NCBI RefSeq assembly: GCF_050920415.1 | Contig: NZ_CP169309.1 | Direction: 5' to 3' (one strand) | Length of the DNA stretch: 64,000 nucleotides | DNA from: Escherichia coli | GTDB lineage: Bacteria > Pseudomonadota > Gammaproteobacteria > Enterobacterales > Enterobacteriaceae | Shown: piece after piece, positions 6,454-54,323 of the stretch | Layout: every line of letters begins with the position of its first letter | How positions within the stretch are numbered: the stretch's first letter is position 1 | Translations under genes and position numbers: made by a program | The notes under the pieces: generated by a model | The model's database searches: none | The model's input: the letters and a program-made list of their open reading frames with translations, nothing else | Told to the model about the DNA's origin: nothing

Positions 6454-9249
6454 ATGGAGATAATTATGAGAAACCTCTGTTTCTTACTGACGTTAGTGGC
6501 AACTCTGTTGCTCCCCGGGCGACTGATTGCCGCCGCCTTACCGCAGGATGAAAAGTTAATTACCGGGCAACTGGACAATGGCTTGCGATACATGATTTAT
6601 CCGCATGCTCAACCAAAGGATCAGGTAAATTTATGGCTGCAAATTCATACCGGTTCATTGCAGGAAGAAGACAATGAGCGCGGTGTGGCTCATTTTGTAG
6701 AACATATGATGTTTAACGGCACAAAAACATGGCCGGGTAATAAAGTCATCGAAACATTTGAGTCAATGGGCCTGCGTTTTGGTCGCGATGTTAATGCCTA
6801 TACCAGCTATGACGAAACGGTGTACCAAGTAAGTTTGCCGACTACGCAGAAACAAAATCTGCAACAAGTGATGGCAATCTTCAGTGAATGGAGTAATGCC
6901 GCAACCTTTGAGAAACTTGAAGTAGACGCTGAACGCGGCGTAATTACTGAGGAATGGCGTGCATATCAGGATGCGAAATGGCGTACATCTCAGGCGCGCC
7001 GCCCTTTTCTTTTGGCAAATACACGTAATTTAGACCGTGAACCTATCGGCCTGATGGATACTGTTGCCACAGTCACACCGGCACAATTGCGCCAGTTTTA
7101 TCAACGCTGGTATCAACCCAATAATATGACCTTTATTGTGGTCGGCGATATCGACAGTAAAGAAGCGCTGGCGCTGATAAAGGATAATTTAAGTAAGCTC
7201 CCGGCTAACAAAGCAGCTGAAAATCGCGTCTGGCCGACAAAAGCCGAAAACCACCTGCGCTTTAATATCATTAATGATAAAGAAAACCGGGTGAACGGCA
7301 TCGCACTCTATTATCGCCTGCCAATGGTGCAAGTGAGCGATGAGCAAAGCTTTATCGAACAAGCTGAATGGAGCATGTTGGTTCAGCTGTTCAATCAACG
7401 TCTGCAGGAACGTATACAGTCGGGCGAGTTGAAGACTATTTCTGGTGGCACTGCGCGCAGCGTTAAAATTGCACCCGATTATCAGTCGCTGTTTTTCCGT
7501 GTAAATGCACGTGACAATAATATGCAGGATGCTGCGAATGCATTAATGGCAGAGTTGGCAACCCTCGATCAACATGGTTTTTCTGCTGAAGAACTCGACG
7601 ATGTTAAAACTACCCGCCTAACCTGGCTGAAAAATGCGGTTGATCAGCAAGCTGAACGCGATTTACGTATGCTGACCAGTCGCCTGGCGTCCAGCTCGTT
7701 AAATAATACGCCGTTCTTGTCGCCGGAAGAGACATACCAACTTTCGAAACGTCTGTGGCCGCAAATTACCGTGCAAAGTCTGGCGGAAAAATGGCAGCAG
7801 CTAAGAAAGAACCAGGACGCATTTTGGGAGCAAATGGTGAATAACGAGGTTGCAGCCAACAAAGCATTATCTCCTGCGGCTATCCTGGCGCTGGAAAAAG
7901 AGTACGCCAACAAAAAGCTGGCAGCTTACATCTTCCCTGGCAGAAATTTATCGTTAACAGTAGACGCTGACCCACAGGCGGAAATTAGCAGTAAAGAAAC
8001 ACTGGCTGAGAATCTGACATCATTAACACTTTCTAATGGTGCCAGGGTTATTCTGGCAAAATCAGCGGGTGAAGAGCAAAAGCTACAAATTATTGCCGTA
8101 TCTAATAAAGGTGATTTAAGTTTCCCTGCGCAGCAAAAATCACTTATCGCGCTGGCAAATAAAGCGGTGAGTGGCAGCGGCGTTGGTGATCTCTCCTCTT
8201 CCAGCCTGAAACGCTGGAGTGCGGAAAACTCGGTAACCATGAGCAGCAAAGTCAGTGGGCTGAATACGTTGCTCTCCGTGAGCGCGCGGGCTAATAATCC
8301 TGAACCTGGTTTCCAGTTGATTAACCAGCGAATCACTCACAGCACGATTAATGACAATATTTGGGCATCGCTACAAAATGCTCAAATTCAGGCGTTGAAA
8401 ACGCTCGACCAGCGTCCAGCAGAGAAATTCGCCCAGCAGATGTATGAGAAGCGCTATGCTGATGACCGTACGAAATTACTGCAAGAAAAACAGATTGCAC
8501 AATTTACTGCCGCAGACGCGCTGGCAGCCGATCGCCAGTTATTTTCATCTCCAGCGGATATCACGTTTGTCGTTGTCGGTAATGTCGCAGAAGACAAACT
8601 TCTGCCGTTAATTACGCGTTACTTAGGATCAATAAAACACTCTGATTCGCCATTAGCCGCAGGTAAACCATTAACTCGCGCGACGGACAACGCATCGGTT
8701 ACAGTAAAAGAACAAAATGAACCTGTGGCACAGGTTTCACAGTGGAATCGTTATGATTCCCGGACACCTGTAAATCTGGAGACGCGTATGGCGCTGGATG
8801 CCTTTAACGTTGCCCTGGCTAAAGATCTGCGCATTAATATTCGTGAACAGGCATCTGGGGCATACAGCGTTTCTTCTCGCCTCTCGGTTGATCCTCAGGC
8901 CAAAGATATCACCCATTTGCTGGCTTTTACTTGTCAACCAGAACGGCATGAAGAACTGTTAGCGTTAGCGAATGAAGTGATGGTTAAGCGTCTGGCTAAA
9001 GGGATCAGAAAGCAAGAACTGAACGAATACCAGCAAAACGTTCAGCGTAGCCTCGATATCCAACAGCGTAGCGTTCAACAATTAGCGAACACCATTGTAA
9101 ATAGTCTTATTCAATATGACGATCCTGCCGCATGGACTGCGCAGGAGCAATTATTGAAACAAATGACGGTAGATAATGTTAACACTACGGTTAAACAATA
9201 TCTTTCTCATCCGGTGAATACCTTTACCGGAGTATTACTACCAAAATAA
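6454..9249 (+). CDS. pqqL: Periplasmic M16 (pitrilysin-family) zinc peptidase
   Basis: 931-aa ORF with signal peptide and inverted zinc-binding motif HFVEH (HxxEH). Confidence 0.9.
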   Translation: MEIIMRNLCFLLTLVATLLLPGRLIAAALPQDEKLITGQLDNGLRYMIYPHAQPKDQVNLWLQIHTGSLQEEDNERGVAHFVEHMMFNGTKTWPGNKVIETFESMGLRFGRDVNAYTSYDETVYQVSLPTTQKQNLQQVMAIFSEWSNAATFEKLEVDAERGVITEEWRAYQDAKWRTSQARRPFLLANTRNLDREPIGLMDTVATVTPAQLRQFYQRWYQPNNMTFIVVGDIDSKEALALIKDNLSKLPANKAAENRVWPTKAENHLRFNIINDKENRVNGIALYYRLPMVQVSDEQSFIEQAEWSMLVQLFNQRLQERIQSGELKTISGGTARSVKIAPDYQSLFFRVNARDNNMQDAANALMAELATLDQHGFSAEELDDVKTTRLTWLKNAVDQQAERDLRMLTSRLASSSLNNTPFLSPEETYQLSKRLWPQITVQSLAEKWQQLRKNQDAFWEQMVNNEVAANKALSPAAILALEKEYANKKLAAYIFPGRNLSLTVDADPQAEISSKETLAENLTSLTLSNGARVILAKSAGEEQKLQIIAVSNKGDLSFPAQQKSLIALANKAVSGSGVGDLSSSSLKRWSAENSVTMSSKVSGLNTLLSVSARANNPEPGFQLINQRITHSTINDNIWASLQNAQIQALKTLDQRPAEKFAQQMYEKRYADDRTKLLQEKQIAQFTAADALAADRQLFSSPADITFVVVGNVAEDKLLPLITRYLGSIKHSDSPLAAGKPLTRATDNASVTVKEQNEPVAQVSQWNRYDSRTPVNLETRMALDAFNVALAKDLRINIREQASGAYSVSSRLSVDPQAKDITHLLAFTCQPERHEELLALANEVMVKRLAKGIRKQELNEYQQNVQRSLDIQQRSVQQLANTIVNSLIQYDDPAAWTAQEQLLKQMTVDNVNTTVKQYLSHPVNTFTGVLLPK

Positions 9250-9255
9250 TGACGT

Positions 9256-9286
9256 CCCCCGTCAACATATCGTTGGCGGGGGTTTT
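9256..9286 (+). terminator. Rho-independent terminator after pqqL
   Basis: GC-rich hairpin CCCCCGTCAAC...GTTGGCGGGGG followed by TTTT. Confidence 0.6.
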
Positions 9287-9510
9287 AGCAACAGACGTTA
9301 TTTTATATAATAATTTTATGAATGCGTTCAAAATAACAACCGAGTACTAATAATGATATTTTAAGGGCTAATTTTTATGTGATAATTCACCAGAGTTAGA
9401 AAGCGCGTCAAAATAATGACATACAACACCACACTACAATCCATAACACCCTACGCTATTGTTTTTTAACGTAAATATATTTTTCCCATAATATCTCACG
9501 ATAAATAACA

Positions 9511-9530
9511 TTAGGATTTTGTTATTTAAA
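9511..9530 (+). promoter_or_regulatory. GAD box (GadE/GadX/GadW binding site) upstream of gadB
   Basis: Exact match to the 20-bp GAD box TTAGGATTTTGTTATTTAAA, about 80 bp upstream of the gadB ATG. Confidence 0.75.
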
Positions 9531-9609
9531 CACAAGACCTTTGCACTTGCTTACTTTATCGATAAATCCTACTTTTTTAATGCGATCCAATCATTTTAAG
9601 GAGTTTAAA

Positions 9610-11010
9610 ATGGATAAGAAGCAAGTAACGGATTTAAGGTCGGAATTACTCGATTCACGTTTTGGCGCTAAGTCTATTTCCACTATTGCAGAATCAAAAC
9701 GATTTCCGCTGCACGAAATGCGCGATGATGTCGCATTCCAGATTATCAATGATGAGTTATATCTTGATGGCAACGCTCGTCAGAATCTGGCAACGTTCTG
9801 CCAGACCTGGGACGACGAAAATGTCCATAAGTTGATGGATTTATCCATTAACAAAAACTGGATCGACAAAGAAGAATATCCGCAATCTGCAGCAATCGAT
9901 CTGCGTTGCGTAAACATGGTTGCCGATCTGTGGCATGCGCCTGCACCGAAAAATGGTCAGGCCGTTGGCACCAACACCATTGGTTCTTCCGAGGCCTGTA
10001 TGCTCGGCGGGATGGCGATGAAATGGCGTTGGCGCAAGCGTATGGAAGCTGCAGGTAAGCCGACTAACAAACCGAACCTGGTGTGCGGTCCGGTACAAAT
10101 CTGCTGGCATAAATTCGCCCGCTACTGGGATGTGGAGTTGCGTGAGATCCCTATGCGCCCCGGTCAGTTGTTTATGGACCCGAAACGCATGATTGAAGCC
10201 TGCGACGAAAACACTATCGGCGTGGTGCCGACTTTCGGCGTGACCTATACCGGTAACTATGAGTTCCCGCAACCGCTGCACGATGCACTGGATAAATTCC
10301 AGGCCGACACCGGTATCGACATCGACATGCACATCGACGCCGCCAGCGGTGGCTTCCTGGCACCGTTCGTCGCCCCGGATATCGTCTGGGACTTCCGCCT
10401 GCCGCGTGTGAAATCGATCAGTGCTTCAGGCCACAAATTCGGTCTGGCTCCGCTGGGCTGCGGCTGGGTTATCTGGCGTGACGAAGAAGCGCTGCCGCAG
10501 GAACTGGTATTCAACGTTGACTACCTCGGTGGTCAGATTGGGACTTTCGCCATCAACTTCTCCCGTCCGGCAGGCCAGGTGATTGCACAATACTATGAGT
10601 TTCTGCGCCTCGGTCGTGAAGGCTATACCAAAGTACAGAACGCCTCCTACCAGGTTGCCGCTTATCTGGCGGATGAAATCGCCAAACTGGGGCCGTATGA
10701 GTTCATCTGTACGGGTCGCCCGGACGAAGGCATCCCGGCGGTTTGCTTCAAACTGAAAGATGGTGAAGATCCGGGATACACCCTGTATGACCTCTCTGAA
10801 CGTCTGCGTCTGCGCGGCTGGCAGGTTCCGGCTTTCACTCTCGGCGGTGAAGCCACTGACATCGTGGTGATGCGCATTATGTGCCGTCGTGGCTTCGAAA
10901 TGGACTTTGCTGAACTGTTGCTGGAAGACTACAAAGCCTCCCTGAAATATCTCAGCGACCACCCGAAACTGCAGGGTATTGCCCAGCAGAACAGCTTTAA
11001 ACACACCTGA
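9610..11010 (+). CDS. gadB: Glutamate decarboxylase beta (PLP-dependent)
   Basis: 466-aa product starting [21 protein letters not shown]; the ORF track's 489-aa version is an upstream extension; RBS GGAG precedes ATG 9610. Confidence 0.95.
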
Positions 11011-11030
11011 TAACGTTGAACGGTAACGGT

Positions 11031-11056
11031 GTCCCGAAACGAACCCGTTTCGGGAC
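11031..11056 (+). other. Perfect stem-loop in the gadB-gadC intergenic region
   Basis: GTCCCGAAACG / AACC / CGTTTCGGGAC, an 11-bp perfect inverted repeat with no following T-run. Confidence 0.6.
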
Positions 11057-11165
11057 AATTTCCAAAGTCTGTTCACTGGCATTAGCAACGGAAAATATTG
11101 TTCTGAATACGCTTCAGAACAAAACAGGTGCGGTTCCGACAGGAATACCGTTTTAGGGGGATAAT

Positions 11166-12701
11166 ATGGCTACATCAGTACAGACAGGTAAAGCTAAGCA
11201 GCTCACATTACTCGGATTTTTTGCCATAACGGCATCGATGGTAATGGCTGTTTATGAATACCCTACCTTCGCAACATCGGGCTTTTCATTAGTCTTCTTC
11301 CTGCTTTTAGGCGGGATTTTATGGTTTATTCCCGTGGGGCTTTGTGCTGCGGAAATGGCCACCGTCGACGGCTGGGAAGAAGGTGGTGTCTTCGCCTGGG
11401 TATCAAATACTCTGGGGCCGAGATGGGGGTTTGCAGCGATCTCATTTGGCTATCTGCAAATCGCCATCGGTTTTATTCCAATGCTCTATTTCGTGTTAGG
11501 GGCACTCTCCTACATCCTGAAATGGCCAGCGTTGAATGAAGACCCCATTACCAAAACTATTGCAGCACTCATCATTCTTTGGGCGCTGGCATTAACACAG
11601 TTTGGTGGCACGAAATACACGGCGCGAATTGCTAAAGTTGGCTTCTTCGCCGGTATCCTGTTACCTGCATTTATTTTGATCGCATTAGCAGCTATTTATC
11701 TGCACTCCGGTGCTCCCGTTGCTATCGAAATGGATGCGAAAACCTTCTTCCCTGACTTCTCTAAAGTCGGCACCCTGGTTGTGTTTGTTGCCTTCATTTT
11801 GAGTTATATGGGGGTAGAAGCTTCCGCAACCCACGTCAATGAAATGCGCAATCCCGGTCGCGATTATCCGCTGGCGATGTTACTGCTGATGGTGGCGGCA
11901 ATCTGCTTAAGCTCTGTTGGCGGCTTGTCTATTGCGATGGTTATTCCGGGTAATGAAATCAACCTCTCCGCAGGGGTAATGCAAACCTTTACCGTTCTGA
12001 TGTCACATGTGGCACCGGAAATTGAGTGGACGGTTCGCGTGATCTCCGCACTGCTGTTGCTGGGTGTTCTGGCGGAAATCGCTTCCTGGATTGTTGGCCC
12101 TTCTCGCGGGATGTATGTCACCGCGCAGAAAAACCTGCTGCCAGCGGCGTTCGCTAAAATGAACAAAAATGGCGTACCGGTAACGCTGGTTATTTCGCAG
12201 CTGGTGATTACTACTATCGCGTTGATCATCCTCACCAATACCGGTGGCGGTAACAATATGTCCTTCCTGATTGCCCTGGCGCTGACGGTGGTGATTTATC
12301 TGTGTGCTTATTTCATGCTGTTTATTGGCTACATTGTGTTAGTGCTTAAACATCCTGACTTAAAACGCACATTTAATATCCCTGGTGGTAAAGGGGTGAA
12401 ACTGGTCGTGGCAATTGTCGGTCTGCTGACTTCAATTATGGCGTTTATTGTTTCCTTCCTGCCGCCGGATAATATCCAGGGGGACTCTACCGATATGTAT
12501 GTCGAATTACTGGTCGTTAGTTTCCTGGTGGTACTTGCCCTGCCCTTCATTCTCTATGCTGTTCATGATCGTAAAGGCAAAGCGAATACCGGCGTATCTC
12601 TGGAACCAATCAACAGCCAGAACGCTCCGAAAGGTCACTTCTTCCTGCACCCGCGTGCACGTTCACCACACTATATTGTGATGAATGACAAGAAACACTA
12701 A
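11166..12701 (+). CDS. gadC: Glutamate:GABA antiporter
   Basis: 511-aa polytopic membrane protein directly downstream of gadB. Confidence 0.95.
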
Positions 12702-12726
12702 CCATGTCTGAATGGTTATAAGACAA

Positions 12727-12756
12727 GGGAGCGATAATTCATCGCTCCCTTTTTCG
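12727..12756 (+). terminator. Rho-independent terminator after gadC
   Basis: Hairpin GGGAGCGAT-AATTC-ATCGCTCCC followed by TTTTT. Confidence 0.7.
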
Positions 12757-12831
12757 TGCTCGCTGTCGTATTGACTTAACCGGGATAAGTACGAGAATGA
12801 GCGCACATCTGTTTACCGGAAACCAGCATAT

Positions 12832-14151
12832 ATGGATATCTGCTCCCGAAACGAGAAATTAGCGATTAGAAGACCAGCGGTACTGGTTGCACTGGCACTT
12901 TTACTGTGTAGTTGCAAAAGCACGCCCCCAGAGTCAATGGTGACACCACCAACAGGTTCGAAGCCACCAGCTACGACGCAACAATCGTCACAACCGATGC
13001 GTGGCATCTGGCTGGCCACAGTGTCTCGCCTCGACTGGCCACCGGTTTCCTCGGTTAACATTAGTAACCCCACCAGCCGTGCACGTGTACAACAACAGGC
13101 GATGATCGACAAACTGGATCATCTGCAACGTCTCGGTATAAACACGGTCTTTTTCCAGGTCAAGCCGGACGGTACCGCACTATGGCCATCGAAAATTTTG
13201 CCGTGGTCCGATCTTATGACCGGTAAGATTGGCGAAAACCCGGGTTACGATCCGTTGCAATTTATGCTCGACGAAGCCCACAAGCGTGGGATGAAAGTAC
13301 ACGCCTGGTTTAACCCTTACCGCGTATCGGTTAATACAAAGCCTGGTACTATCAGGGAACTGAATAGCACCCTGTCTCAACAACCGGCCAGCGTCTATGT
13401 GCAACACCGCGACTGGATTAGAACGTCGGGTGATCGGTTTGTCCTCGACCCAGGCATCCCTGAGGTTCAGGACTGGATCACATCAATAGTCGCGGAAGTG
13501 GTTTCCCGCTATCCGGTAGATGGCGTGCAGTTTGACGACTATTTTTATACTGAGTCACCAGCTTCACGGCTAAATGATAACGAAACGTACCGCAAATACG
13601 GAGGCGCATTTGCGTCAAAAGCAGACTGGCGGCGCAACAATACTCAGCAGTTAATTGCGAAGGTATCGCACACCATTAAAAGCATTAAGCCGGAAGTCGA
13701 ATTTGGCGTTAGCCCGGCAGGCGTGTGGCGTAACCGATCACACGATCCGCTCGGTTCCGATACCCGAGGCGCGGCAGCCTATGACGAATCCTATGCTGAC
13801 ACCCGTCGATGGGTGGAACAAGGATTGCTGGATTACATTGCTCCCCAAATTTACTGGCCGTTCTCACGGAGTGCCGCACGTTATGACGTTTTGGCAAAAT
13901 GGTGGGCGGATGTCGTTAAACCGACCAGGACCCGCCTGTATATCGGTATCGCCTTCTATAAAGTGGGTGAACCTTCAAAGATAGAACCAGACTGGATGAT
14001 TAACGGTGGCGTACCGGAACTGAAAAAGCAGCTCGATCTTAACGATGCTGTACCAGAAATCAGCGGCACAATCTTGTTCCGTGAGGACTATCTGAACAAA
14101 CCTCAGACTCAACAAGCGGTCAGCTATTTGCAAAGTCGTTGGGGCAGTTAA
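12832..14151 (+). CDS. yddW: Putative lipoprotein, glycoside-hydrolase-like (DUF187 family)
   Basis: 439-aa ORF with signal peptide and Cys-containing lipobox-like segment (LLLCSC); synteny between gadC and dosC. Confidence 0.85.
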   Translation: MDICSRNEKLAIRRPAVLVALALLLCSCKSTPPESMVTPPTGSKPPATTQQSSQPMRGIWLATVSRLDWPPVSSVNISNPTSRARVQQQAMIDKLDHLQRLGINTVFFQVKPDGTALWPSKILPWSDLMTGKIGENPGYDPLQFMLDEAHKRGMKVHAWFNPYRVSVNTKPGTIRELNSTLSQQPASVYVQHRDWIRTSGDRFVLDPGIPEVQDWITSIVAEVVSRYPVDGVQFDDYFYTESPASRLNDNETYRKYGGAFASKADWRRNNTQQLIAKVSHTIKSIKPEVEFGVSPAGVWRNRSHDPLGSDTRGAAAYDESYADTRRWVEQGLLDYIAPQIYWPFSRSAARYDVLAKWWADVVKPTRTRLYIGIAFYKVGEPSKIEPDWMINGGVPELKKQLDLNDAVPEISGTILFREDYLNKPQTQQAVSYLQSRWGS

Positions 14152-25824: not shown

Positions 25825-25854
25825 TCTTTAACAATCAGTCCTCAATGACGATTA

Positions 25855-25889
25855 AACACCATTGCCTGCGCAATGGTGTTTTTGTTTTT
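25855..25889 (+). terminator. Rho-independent terminator after bdm-sra
   Basis: AACACCATTGC-loop-GCAATGGTGTT followed by TTTTGTTTTT. Confidence 0.75.
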
Positions 25890-29730: not shown

Positions 29731-29798
29731 TGTACGTTGTCTACAATAAAAAATGGCGCTTTTTACAGCGCCATTTTCAGCTTAAAGTTCAAAAGAGA

Positions 29799-50152: not shown

Positions 50153-50722
50153 GTGAGCCGATTCATCCCCGTCGAATTACACCATGCCAGCCGTCTGTTA
50201 AACCACGGCCCCACAGTTTTGATAACAACTTTTGATGAAAAATCACAGCGACGTAATGTGATGGCTGCGGCCTGGTCGATGCCGGTGGAGTTTGAACCGC
50301 CACGTGTGGCGATTGTGGTAGATAAATCGACATGGACCAGGGAGTTGATTGAGCGTAACGGTAAATTTGGCATCGTTATCCCGGGCGTTGCGGCGACTAA
50401 CTGGACGTGGGCGGTGGGAAGTGTGTCGGGTCGTGAAGAAGATAAATTTAATTGCTATGGCATTCCGGTTGTGAAAGGTCCGGTGCTTGGATTGCCGCTG
50501 GTTGAAGAGAAATGTCTGGCATGGATGGAGTGTCGATTGCTACCAGCGACTTCTGCGCAAGAAAAATACGATACGCTATTTGGCGAAGTGGTATCGGCAG
50601 CGGCAGACGCACGAGTATTTGTCGAAGGCCGCTGGCAGTTTGATGATGACAAACTCAATACACTACATCATTTAGGTGCTGGCACGTTTGTTACCAGCGG
50701 CAAGCGAGTTGCCGCTGGTTAA
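50153..50722 (+). CDS. yddH: Flavin reductase-like protein
   Basis: 189-aa ORF, divergent from nhoA. Confidence 0.9.
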   Translation: MSRFIPVELHHASRLLNHGPTVLITTFDEKSQRRNVMAAAWSMPVEFEPPRVAIVVDKSTWTRELIERNGKFGIVIPGVAATNWTWAVGSVSGREEDKFNCYGIPVVKGPVLGLPLVEEKCLAWMECRLLPATSAQEKYDTLFGEVVSAAADARVFVEGRWQFDDDKLNTLHHLGAGTFVTSGKRVAAG

Positions 50723-52439: not shown

Positions 52440-54323
52440 GAGTAGGCCACCGGAACCTCCCCGACAGCCTCTCGCAGAACCGTACGTGAAACTCTCGCTT
52501 CATACGGCTCCCGTCAGGCAAACGCGCTTCCTGGTCCTGCTTTCCAGTGGGCAAACAACTCCGGCTTCTCTTTTGACAGTCTTTCCATTAGCTGACACGC
52601 CTTCGTCTTTCTATACCACAGGGTTTTATATTTCTTTCTCGCCCACGCAATCAGCGTCAGATTAATATATCTGCATACTTTCTTCATCGCTGATTTGTGG
52701 TATCTCGCGTAATAATTCAGCCACCCCGATATTATCAGATTCAGCCACTTCGCAATATCTTCGAGACTCATCTCCACCCTGCGTCTGATCCACAGTTTCC
52801 TGAGTTTTCCAATCATGCCTTTCTGCGCACGGTTACTCGCCGCCGGGCTGAAACTCGTAAAGAGGTTTCCCCGCCGGTGGTTACGTGCTCTTCGCGCTCT
52901 GAACGTATACCCCAGAAAATCAAACTGCACTGTTTCATGGTTCGCCTGTCGTTCGCTGTCTTTGCAGTAAACTATTTTCGTTTTCTCCGGATGTAATTCC
53001 AGTCCACATTCCTGAAAACGTTTTGCCAGCTTATTCAGTAATTCCTCTGCCTGTTGTTTACTGCCACAATGAATTAATCCATCATCTGCATAACGGCACC
53101 AGGGAATTTCCGGATAATGTAACGTCAGCCATTTATCAAACACATAGTGCAGAAATAAATTCGCCAGTACCGGGCTGATGACTCCACCCTGTGGCGTACC
53201 TTTATTTCTTTCCTTCAGTGTTCCATCCGGCATCTGCACCGGCGCTGTCAGCCAGCGGCGAATAGACAGTCTTACCCATTTATCCGCACAATGTTTATCT
53301 ACTGCCCTGAGTAATAAATCGTGGGGGATATTATCGAATAACCCTTTAATATCAAACTCAAGACACCAGTCGTATTGCCAGCAACGTTTTCTGGTGACTG
53401 CTATTGCATCCAGCGCTGATTTTCCATGCCGGTATCCGTATGAATCATTCAGGAAATAACGCTCCACTAATGGTTCAAACGTTACCAGCACCGTCATCTG
53501 CGCTATTCTATCGCTTACTGTCGGTATTCCTAAAAGTCTTTTGCTGCCATCCTTCTTCGGAATTTCCACCGCACGCACTGGCGGCGGCATCCAGCTTCCC
53601 GACGATAACCTGTTCCAGATTTTGTACAGATTTCCTTTCAGATCCCGCTCAAAATCTTTCAGCGTCTGGTTATCCACTCCGGCAGCTCCGGCATTCGCCT
53701 TTATCCGCCGGTACGCTTCCACCACATGCAATTTACTGACCTGAAACGGTTTTGTCTGTTCACACACAGTCTCCTCCTGCCTACAGTTGGGCTGTGATGC
53801 AGACTGCCCGACGCTGTCCCTTCGCTCCACGTTCATTACAAACGCTTCCTCACTACTACGAACAGCTCTGCCCCGGTTTCGCACATCGATACTCTCATAC
53901 TCATAATTTCGGTTATTTGTAATTCTCTCTTGACATTGCGACGACCGGTTCCCGTAGTTCCTGCAAAGAGCCCGATACAGCGTCATGCCTGCTATACACC
54001 GGACATCATTCACGCAGCATTCGGAATTCACCCGTAAATTAATCCCGGCGGTATCACGAAACCTCCGGTTTTGATGTCACTTAGGACTAACGACGTTTCA
54101 ACACAGGTTCGGGTTTACTCATCTCACTGTATCTCACATAGGATCAGATCTCGTCTGATCGTTCCCCCTGCGCTCACTACCATGGCTCTTTACCACAGCA
54201 GCCGGGGTTGTTTGGGACCGACTTCCGACAGCAGATCCCGGTGGGCCTGCCACCATCTCTTCACAAGCTTATGCTTATTACATGCAAAACGTCCCGTTTT
54301 GCATCTTTGTGCCTACGGCACAC
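52440..54323 (-). mobile_element. Group II intron (boundaries approximate)
   Basis: On the minus strand: 5' GUGUG-type start near 54323, internal RT/maturase ORF, and a canonical domain V hairpin GAGCCGTATGAAGCGAGAGTTTCACGTACGGTTC (plus coordinates 52477..52510) followed by a domain VI-like helix. Confidence 0.8.
52514..54031 (-). CDS. Group II intron-encoded reverse transcriptase/maturase
   Basis: 505 aa with RT motifs including YADD (RYADDGLIHC) and a C-terminal maturase (domain X) region; stop codon abuts domain V. Confidence 0.9.
   Translation of the reverse strand: MNSECCVNDVRCIAGMTLYRALCRNYGNRSSQCQERITNNRNYEYESIDVRNRGRAVRSSEEAFVMNVERRDSVGQSASQPNCRQEETVCEQTKPFQVSKLHVVEAYRRIKANAGAAGVDNQTLKDFERDLKGNLYKIWNRLSSGSWMPPPVRAVEIPKKDGSKRLLGIPTVSDRIAQMTVLVTFEPLVERYFLNDSYGYRHGKSALDAIAVTRKRCWQYDWCLEFDIKGLFDNIPHDLLLRAVDKHCADKWVRLSIRRWLTAPVQMPDGTLKERNKGTPQGGVISPVLANLFLHYVFDKWLTLHYPEIPWCRYADDGLIHCGSKQQAEELLNKLAKRFQECGLELHPEKTKIVYCKDSERQANHETVQFDFLGYTFRARRARNHRRGNLFTSFSPAASNRAQKGMIGKLRKLWIRRRVEMSLEDIAKWLNLIISGWLNYYARYHKSAMKKVCRYINLTLIAWARKKYKTLWYRKTKACQLMERLSKEKPELFAHWKAGPGSAFA

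Follow-up and report, generated by a model that had tools for sequence, protein, structure and literature searches.

Intercistronic stabilizers (SRPS), exemplified by the REP sequence of malE-malF and by the Rhodobacter puf operon, are hairpins that separate two genes of one transcript and coincide with an RNA 3' end; the gene before the hairpin specifies a soluble protein made in greater abundance, and the gene after it a membrane protein. In reporter work, a stable intercistronic stem-loop was observed to increase the expression of the upstream gene. A second relevant class was described by Dar and Sorek in 2018 (PMC6061677), who reported that stem-loops lacking a U-tract define steady-state 3' ends and protect the RNA against PNPase and RNase II once it has been terminated or cleaved farther downstream. 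These structures are found just upstream of a precise in vivo end, have neither a U-rich tract nor an upstream A-tract, and have stem and loop sizes like those of intrinsic terminators; they are located mainly at gene or operon ends and are tied to Rho. Intrinsic terminators consist of a stable GC-rich stem-loop and, adjoining its 3' side, a U-tract of about 7-8 nt.

In this work, a hairpin between gadB and gadC was compared with these systems. It is located on the plus strand of a 64,000-nucleotide stretch of Escherichia coli DNA (contig NZ_CP169309.1), which is referred to here as the window and to which all coordinates refer unless stated otherwise. The original prediction, made from the letters of the sequence, described a perfect 11-bp inverted repeat without a T-run, and considered it more likely to be an mRNA processing or stability element or a partial attenuator than a full terminator.

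Organization of the gadB-gadC spacer

Positions 10950-11200 (251 bases) match, with 100% identity, a complete E. coli genome in which the two genes are annotated as gadB and gadC, and the spacer is collinear with that of K-12 MG1655 (b1493/b1492), whose hairpin is identical; the predicted identity of the genes flanking the repeat is borne out by both observations. The gadB coding sequence (466 aa) was assigned to positions 9610-11010 using the ORF list and the RefSeq annotation of matching genomes, and its translation is 99.8% identical to K-12 GadB. The mechanically called gadB ORF contains an additional extension (9541-9609) that begins at a TTG located 69 nt upstream of the true ATG at 9610. 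This extension is non-coding, because the mapped gadBC transcription start (K-12 1572073, corresponding to window position 9582 in a collinear alignment without indels) falls inside it. The gene ends in tandem stop codons, TGA at 11008-11010 and TAA at 11011-11013.

Direct reading of the sequence placed GTCCCGAAACG-AACC-CGTTTCGGGAC exactly at 11031-11056, and both the predicted coordinates and the predicted distance of 20 bp from the gadB stop codon (counted from the TGA to the start of the 11-bp core) proved to be correct. The repeat can be extended by one pair, T11030-A11057, which results in a perfect 12-bp stem at 11030-11057, with the arms TGTCCCGAAACG and CGTTTCGGGACA and the 4-nt loop AACC. 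The stem is GC-rich, the 12-bp hairpin has a free energy of -19.9 kcal/mol (RNAfold), and it forms in the MFE as well as in the centroid structure when the whole spacer (11005-11170) is folded. From the reading of the sequence and general knowledge, we judge that a hairpin starting 20 nt past the stop codon lies outside the footprint of the terminating ribosome. A tandem direct repeat, AACGGT AACGGT (11019-11030), adjoins the 5' side of the hairpin. There was no sign of a switchable attenuator, as no competing structure appeared in the MFE and centroid folds; the only alternative pairing visible by eye is a weak 5-bp pairing of AACGG with CCGTT.

The tail 3' of the stem, AATTTCCAAAG, contains three T only (AAUUUCC in the RNA, with no U-run). 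The gadB hairpin has the stable GC-rich stem-loop of an intrinsic terminator but lacks its U-tract of about 7-8 nt, as there are only three U in AAUUUCCAAAG, and it was not called in the terminator scan of the plus strand. The predicted absence of a T-run was thus confirmed. The A/AUUU sequence right after the stem is one that we take to resemble classical RNase E sites. A terminator acting on the opposite strand was excluded, the reverse complement of the hairpin being followed by CCGTTACC.

About 105 nt of untranslated RNA separate the hairpin from the start codon of gadC (511 aa, 11166-12701), which is preceded by the ribosome-binding site AGGGGGA at 11155-11161. This stretch contains a second perfect inverted repeat, of 10 bp, at 11098-11122 (TTGTTCTGAA-TACGC-TTCAGAACAA), which possibly belongs to the 5' leader of gadC. 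Within Escherichia the sequence of this second repeat is conserved, with no compensatory change and with pairs broken in some lineages; read on the minus strand, the repeat precedes TATTTTCC and was marked as resembling a terminator. The canonical terminator of the gadBC operon, AAGGGAGCG-ATAAT-CGCTCCCTT followed by TTTC, is located at 12725-12755 and consists of a perfect 11-bp repeat and a T-run.

Comparison with chance expectation and with repeated elements

Perfect inverted repeats with a stem of at least 10 bp and a loop of 3-10 nt occur seven times in the 64-kb window, compared with 0.57 expected from Markov shuffles, and those with a stem of at least 12 bp occur twice, compared with 0 expected. 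Two of the seven are located in the single 155-nt gadB-gadC spacer and one is the gadC terminator. The remaining ones (stems of 10-12 bp) were found at 25854-25881, 29750-29777, 50693-50719 and 54282-54304; the first of them has a 5' A-run and a 3' T-run and resembles a bidirectional terminator. When the gadB-gadC spacer was shuffled with its dinucleotides preserved, the native hairpin was more stable than that of all 40 shuffled sequences (mean -11.7, standard deviation 3.0). The hairpin is not explained by chance.

A search with the 36-nt hairpin sequence (E-value limit 10) gave a median of one and a maximum of two places per genome in 5405 genomes, and the hairpin is single-copy in 5405 of the 5426 complete E. 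coli genomes. REP, BIME or another repeated element was therefore ruled out, as these are multi-copy. The Rfam 15 covariance models gave no match at E <= 1 on either strand of region 9000-13200.

Published RNA 3' ends and transcripts

In the Term-seq data of Adams et al. 2021 (PMC7815308, Supplementary file 1, M63 0.4 sheet), a 3' end supported by 33,817 reads is listed at MG1655 1570594(-). This position corresponds to 11061 in the window, the last U of ...GGGACAAUUU / ...CGGGACAAUUU, and the listed sequence matches exactly. The same sheet lists the end of the gadC terminator at 1568900(-) with 70,553 reads, which corresponds by collinearity with K-12 to window position 12755. The authors labeled the end after gadB as "orphan", but only because it is located 51 nt past the stop codon and their cut-off for "primary" was 50 nt. 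It was called only in minimal glucose medium, and not in their two LB data sets.

Ends at the same place were reported independently in a TRS study (PMC10687069, supplementary file 4) as a terminus cluster at 1570588-1570598 with a peak at 1570592, i.e. at 11057-11067 in the window with a peak at 11063, within the tail AAUUUCCAAAG. The cluster was classified there as "Alternative primary in TU, gadB", a label for termini that follow a gene other than the last one of the operon, whereas the gadC terminator was classified as "Primary gadC". The TRS value is 0.82 for the gadB terminus and 1.0 for the gadC terminator; it is most likely a statistic of the form R = 1 - read-through, and we did not use it as a termination efficiency.

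According to SMRT-Cappable-seq, the b1493|b1492 transcript starts from 1572073 only, and its table contains no gadC-only start, so that gadC is reached only by reading through the hairpin. An operon table from another study lists a gadB-gadC transcript of 3175 nt (1568899-1572073). The coexistence of full-length 3175-nt transcripts with a single start implies that the element is leaky, and from the published end and transcript maps two RNA populations coexist, gadB-only RNA of about 1480 nt and gadBC RNA of 3175 nt. The region near 11056, where uniform coverage without any 3' end would have spoken against the prediction, in fact carries mapped ends (11061 in Term-seq, peak at 11063 in TRS). 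Together with the read-through transcript, these ends support the predicted processing or stability element or partial attenuator over a full terminator.

A stable stem, the lack of a U-tract and a precise end a few nucleotides downstream favor the view, toward which we lean, that the gadB hairpin acts within the gadBC mRNA as a leaky 3'-end element between the two cistrons, where it defines and protects the end of a gadB-only mRNA. All transcripts would start from the single gadB promoter; some would end 4-6 nt past the hairpin, where both published maps place the ends, and yield the gadB-only mRNA, and the others would go on to the canonical terminator after gadC. The hairpin would act mainly by blocking 3'-to-5' exonucleases (PNPase, RNase II), so that RNA whose end was generated, by cleavage or termination, within the roughly 100 untranslated nucleotides that follow would be trimmed to the stem and persist. 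The gadB segment would then outlive the gadC segment, favoring the abundant cytosolic decarboxylase over the membrane antiporter, and an effect of the hairpin on the GadB:GadC ratio is plausible. The 3' end itself could be produced directly, by weak intrinsic termination, or by trimming of RNA that was cleaved or terminated farther downstream.

Functionally, the gadB hairpin may belong with the U-less protective stem-loops or with the intercistronic stabilizers. It resembles the structures of Dar and Sorek (PMC6061677) in being a stable stem-loop of terminator-like dimensions just upstream of a precise steady-state end, with neither a U-rich tract nor an upstream A-tract. It differs from them in its intra-operon position, where read-through feeds gadC, and the sequence downstream of it has no bias of C over G. 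With the SRPS stabilizers it shares the location between two genes of one transcript, the 3' end at the hairpin, and an upstream gene for the more abundant soluble protein followed by a gene for a membrane protein. Unlike the REP sequences, however, it is single-copy, and a genome-wide study of nuclease targets (PMC10667835) recorded no internal processing site in the gadBC operon and did not flag it as SRPS; gadBC expression was probably low under the conditions of that study.

The main rival is a weak (partial) intrinsic terminator, in which the polymerase would release a fraction of the transcripts at the hairpin and AAUUU, and protection would be a by-product; we regard it as possible but doubtful. 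The strong GC-rich stem is compatible with it, and Dar and Sorek (PMC6061677) stated that intermediate cases may be inefficient intrinsic terminators. A point against the protective element is that, in the same Term-seq data, the 3' end is located 4 nt past the extended stem, an offset equal to that of the gadC intrinsic terminator, so that the geometry fits direct termination equally well. On the other hand, the gadB hairpin differs from that terminator (12725-12755) in having only three U, preceded by AA, instead of a U-tract of 7-8 nt, in not being called by the terminator scan, and in passing enough transcription to express gadC.

Conservation of the hairpin within Escherichia

The whole spacer is about 95% identical across twelve Escherichia sequences, with most of the variation in or around the hairpin. 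In the 10 sampled variant genomes of E. coli, the changes are A to C or C to G in the loop, or G to A at the loop-closing position, and the lower 11 bp are invariant. These three variant classes agree with the identity bands of the full E. coli genome search, in which the 36-nt hairpin window was identical in 3600 genomes, had one mismatch in 1395 and two mismatches in 411. In E. albertii, three pairs are altered on both sides (UA to CG once and AU to GC twice), strain E69 has one G.U pair, and in one Escherichia sp. (MOD1) the upper stem is weakened. The covariation score of the Escherichia set was above that of all but one of 500 shuffles; because essentially a single lineage contributes the covariation of the stem, the evidence is suggestive, not strong.

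The UUU of the tail is not kept within the genus, where the variants AAAUUCC, AA-UUCC and AAACUCC were found. The drift of the tail alongside a compensated stem, with a single U left in the AAACUCC of E. albertii, argues against the weak terminator. Judged from these alignments, the pattern is suggestive of selection acting on the structure of the stem rather than on its sequence or on the tail.

An intact gadB-gadC spacer is missing from about 20 of the 5426 complete E. coli genomes. Strain KC-Dl-1 retains a match to the 3' part of the spacer alone (query positions 91-155), and this match lies under a gene annotated as gadB, pointing to a rearrangement or deletion. Of the spacer matches in the E. 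coli genome search, five are located on plasmids.

Hairpins in other gadB-gadC spacers and after gadA

A scan for GadC relatives yielded 80 loci, most of them with gadB directly upstream of gadC, and the 58 proteobacterial spacers of at least 50 nt were analyzed. As these loci are phylogenetically related, the counts and statistics that follow overstate independence; they cover gadB-gadC junctions only. In 40 of the 58 spacers, the hairpin was better than in all 40 shuffled sequences (median z of -3.3), and in 45 it started at most 40 nt from the gadB stop codon, with a median offset of 17 nt. The hairpin sequences differ widely between genera. The sense RNA was more stable than the antisense RNA in 38 loci and less stable in 14 (Wilcoxon p = 6e-4, for related loci), as would be anticipated for mRNA hairpins that tolerate G.U pairs. 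In a Providencia/Proteus group, compensatory changes were observed at 9 of 14 pairs.

With respect to weak termination, these spacers offer arguments in both directions. Across species, positions +3 to +5 past the hairpin are mildly enriched in U (41-48%, compared with a background of 28%), and Yersinia rohdei, Serratia, two Comamonas-type loci and Proteus myxofaciens have a full U-run in this place. Against it, five or more T in the next 8 nt after the hairpin were found in only 9 of the 58 spacers.

Spacers of the Providencia/Proteus type (L028, L029, L030, L032, L033 and L035) contain a second small hairpin downstream, ATCAGT...ACTGAT or similar, and this two-hairpin arrangement echoes the layout of the E. 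coli spacer. In loci L009-L074, GadC has about 70-80% amino acid identity to that of Escherichia and the adjacent GadB about 56-61%. A transporter being better conserved than a PLP enzyme is unexpected, and may reflect different histories of the two genes.

A hairpin was also found after gadA, upstream of gadX, on the minus strand of K-12 at 3666120-3666162 (L002 1621-1663). Like the gadB hairpin, it is strong and has a U-poor tail (GCUUAUUAAU); it starts 17 nt past the stop codon and has a 15-bp stem and a free energy of -26.6 kcal/mol. It differs from the gadB hairpin in its unrelated sequence and its long, 13-nt loop, and the region after gadA has no homology to the gadB 3' region beyond the stop codon. 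The next gene, gadX, is expressed at a lower level and is reported to be co-transcribed as gadAX. The presence of a strong U-poor hairpin after gadA as well indicates that both decarboxylase genes share this design. The tables of Adams et al. (PMC7815308) contain no Term-seq end at the gadA hairpin.

Tentatively, proteobacterial gadBC operons may maintain, as part of their design, a U-poor hairpin 10-40 nt past the decarboxylase gene, its sequence being replaced repeatedly while its structure and position are kept. Such a feature, mirrored at gadA-gadX, might uncouple the expression of the decarboxylase from that of the antiporter or regulator, perhaps with a condition-dependent read-through, which is suggested by the end after gadB being called in minimal glucose medium and not in LB.

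Other explanations of the 3' end

A Rho-specific version of the protective element would have Rho terminating transcription in the untranslated spacer or early in gadC, with the RNA then trimmed back to the hairpin. U-less stem-loops are typical at the ends of Rho-dependent transcripts (PMC6061677), and about 105 nt of RNA between the hairpin and the gadC start codon are untranslated; both points are in favor of this version. We nevertheless think this version unlikely, as the spacer downstream of the hairpin is not richer in C than in G (20 C and 25 G), so that the C:G ratio is not raised. No region near 1570xxx appears in Supplementary file 2 of Adams et al. (PMC7815308); this absence carries little weight, because the Rho map was made in LB at an OD of 0.5, where the gadB end was not called.

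The hairpin could also be a functionally neutral by-product, at which exonucleases pause and decay intermediates collect, without meaningfully changing the output of GadB or GadC. Intergenic junctions of E. coli often contain stem-loops (PMC6061677), and this one is undiscussed in the searchable literature, where we found no paper printing its sequence or naming a gadB 3' UTR or a gadB-gadC intergenic element; gadB is likewise not mentioned in the TERMITe supplements. Neutrality is improbable, however, in view of the compensatory change in E. albertii, the invariant lower 11 bp in the sampled E. coli variants, the 36-nt hairpin window that is unchanged in most complete genomes, and the unrelated hairpins at the same position in many genera, with their sense-strand bias.

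Finally, the site might be more than a passive RNA hairpin: a palindromic DNA operator for a dimeric regulator, an attenuator that senses conditions, or a place where an RNA-binding protein such as ProQ or CsrA docks. The perfect palindrome, the heavy regulation of the gad system and the binding of CsrA to the gadB leader speak for such an element. It is nevertheless very improbable: G.U pairs and the sense-over-antisense stability point to RNA and disfavor a DNA operator, no competing structure appears in the MFE and centroid folds, there is no Rfam match and no GGA motif in the loop, and a link between gadB and ProQ is absent from the searched literature. The CsrA paper concerns 5' leaders only, and a paper on gadC half-life concerns Lactococcus.

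Significance for the gad system

The end after gadB is already contained in two supplementary tables and the class of element is known too; the element is real but of an ordinary, operon-tuning kind, and the gain in understanding is incremental. If the hairpin is a leaky 3'-end element as we propose, the band of roughly 1.5 kb that is detected on Northern blots with a gadA/B probe can contain gadB-only mRNA in addition to gadA mRNA. Older gad expression data would be affected, because gadA and gadB are about 98% identical. The hairpin may also be a ready-made intercistronic tuning part for the engineering of GABA production or acid tolerance. The gadBC operon is the core of the main extreme-acid survival system of E. 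coli, and the need for GadB far exceeds that for the membrane antiporter GadC; a leaky hairpin at the 3' end of gadB, if it acts as proposed, would be a simple and fixed way of setting the GadB:GadC ratio.
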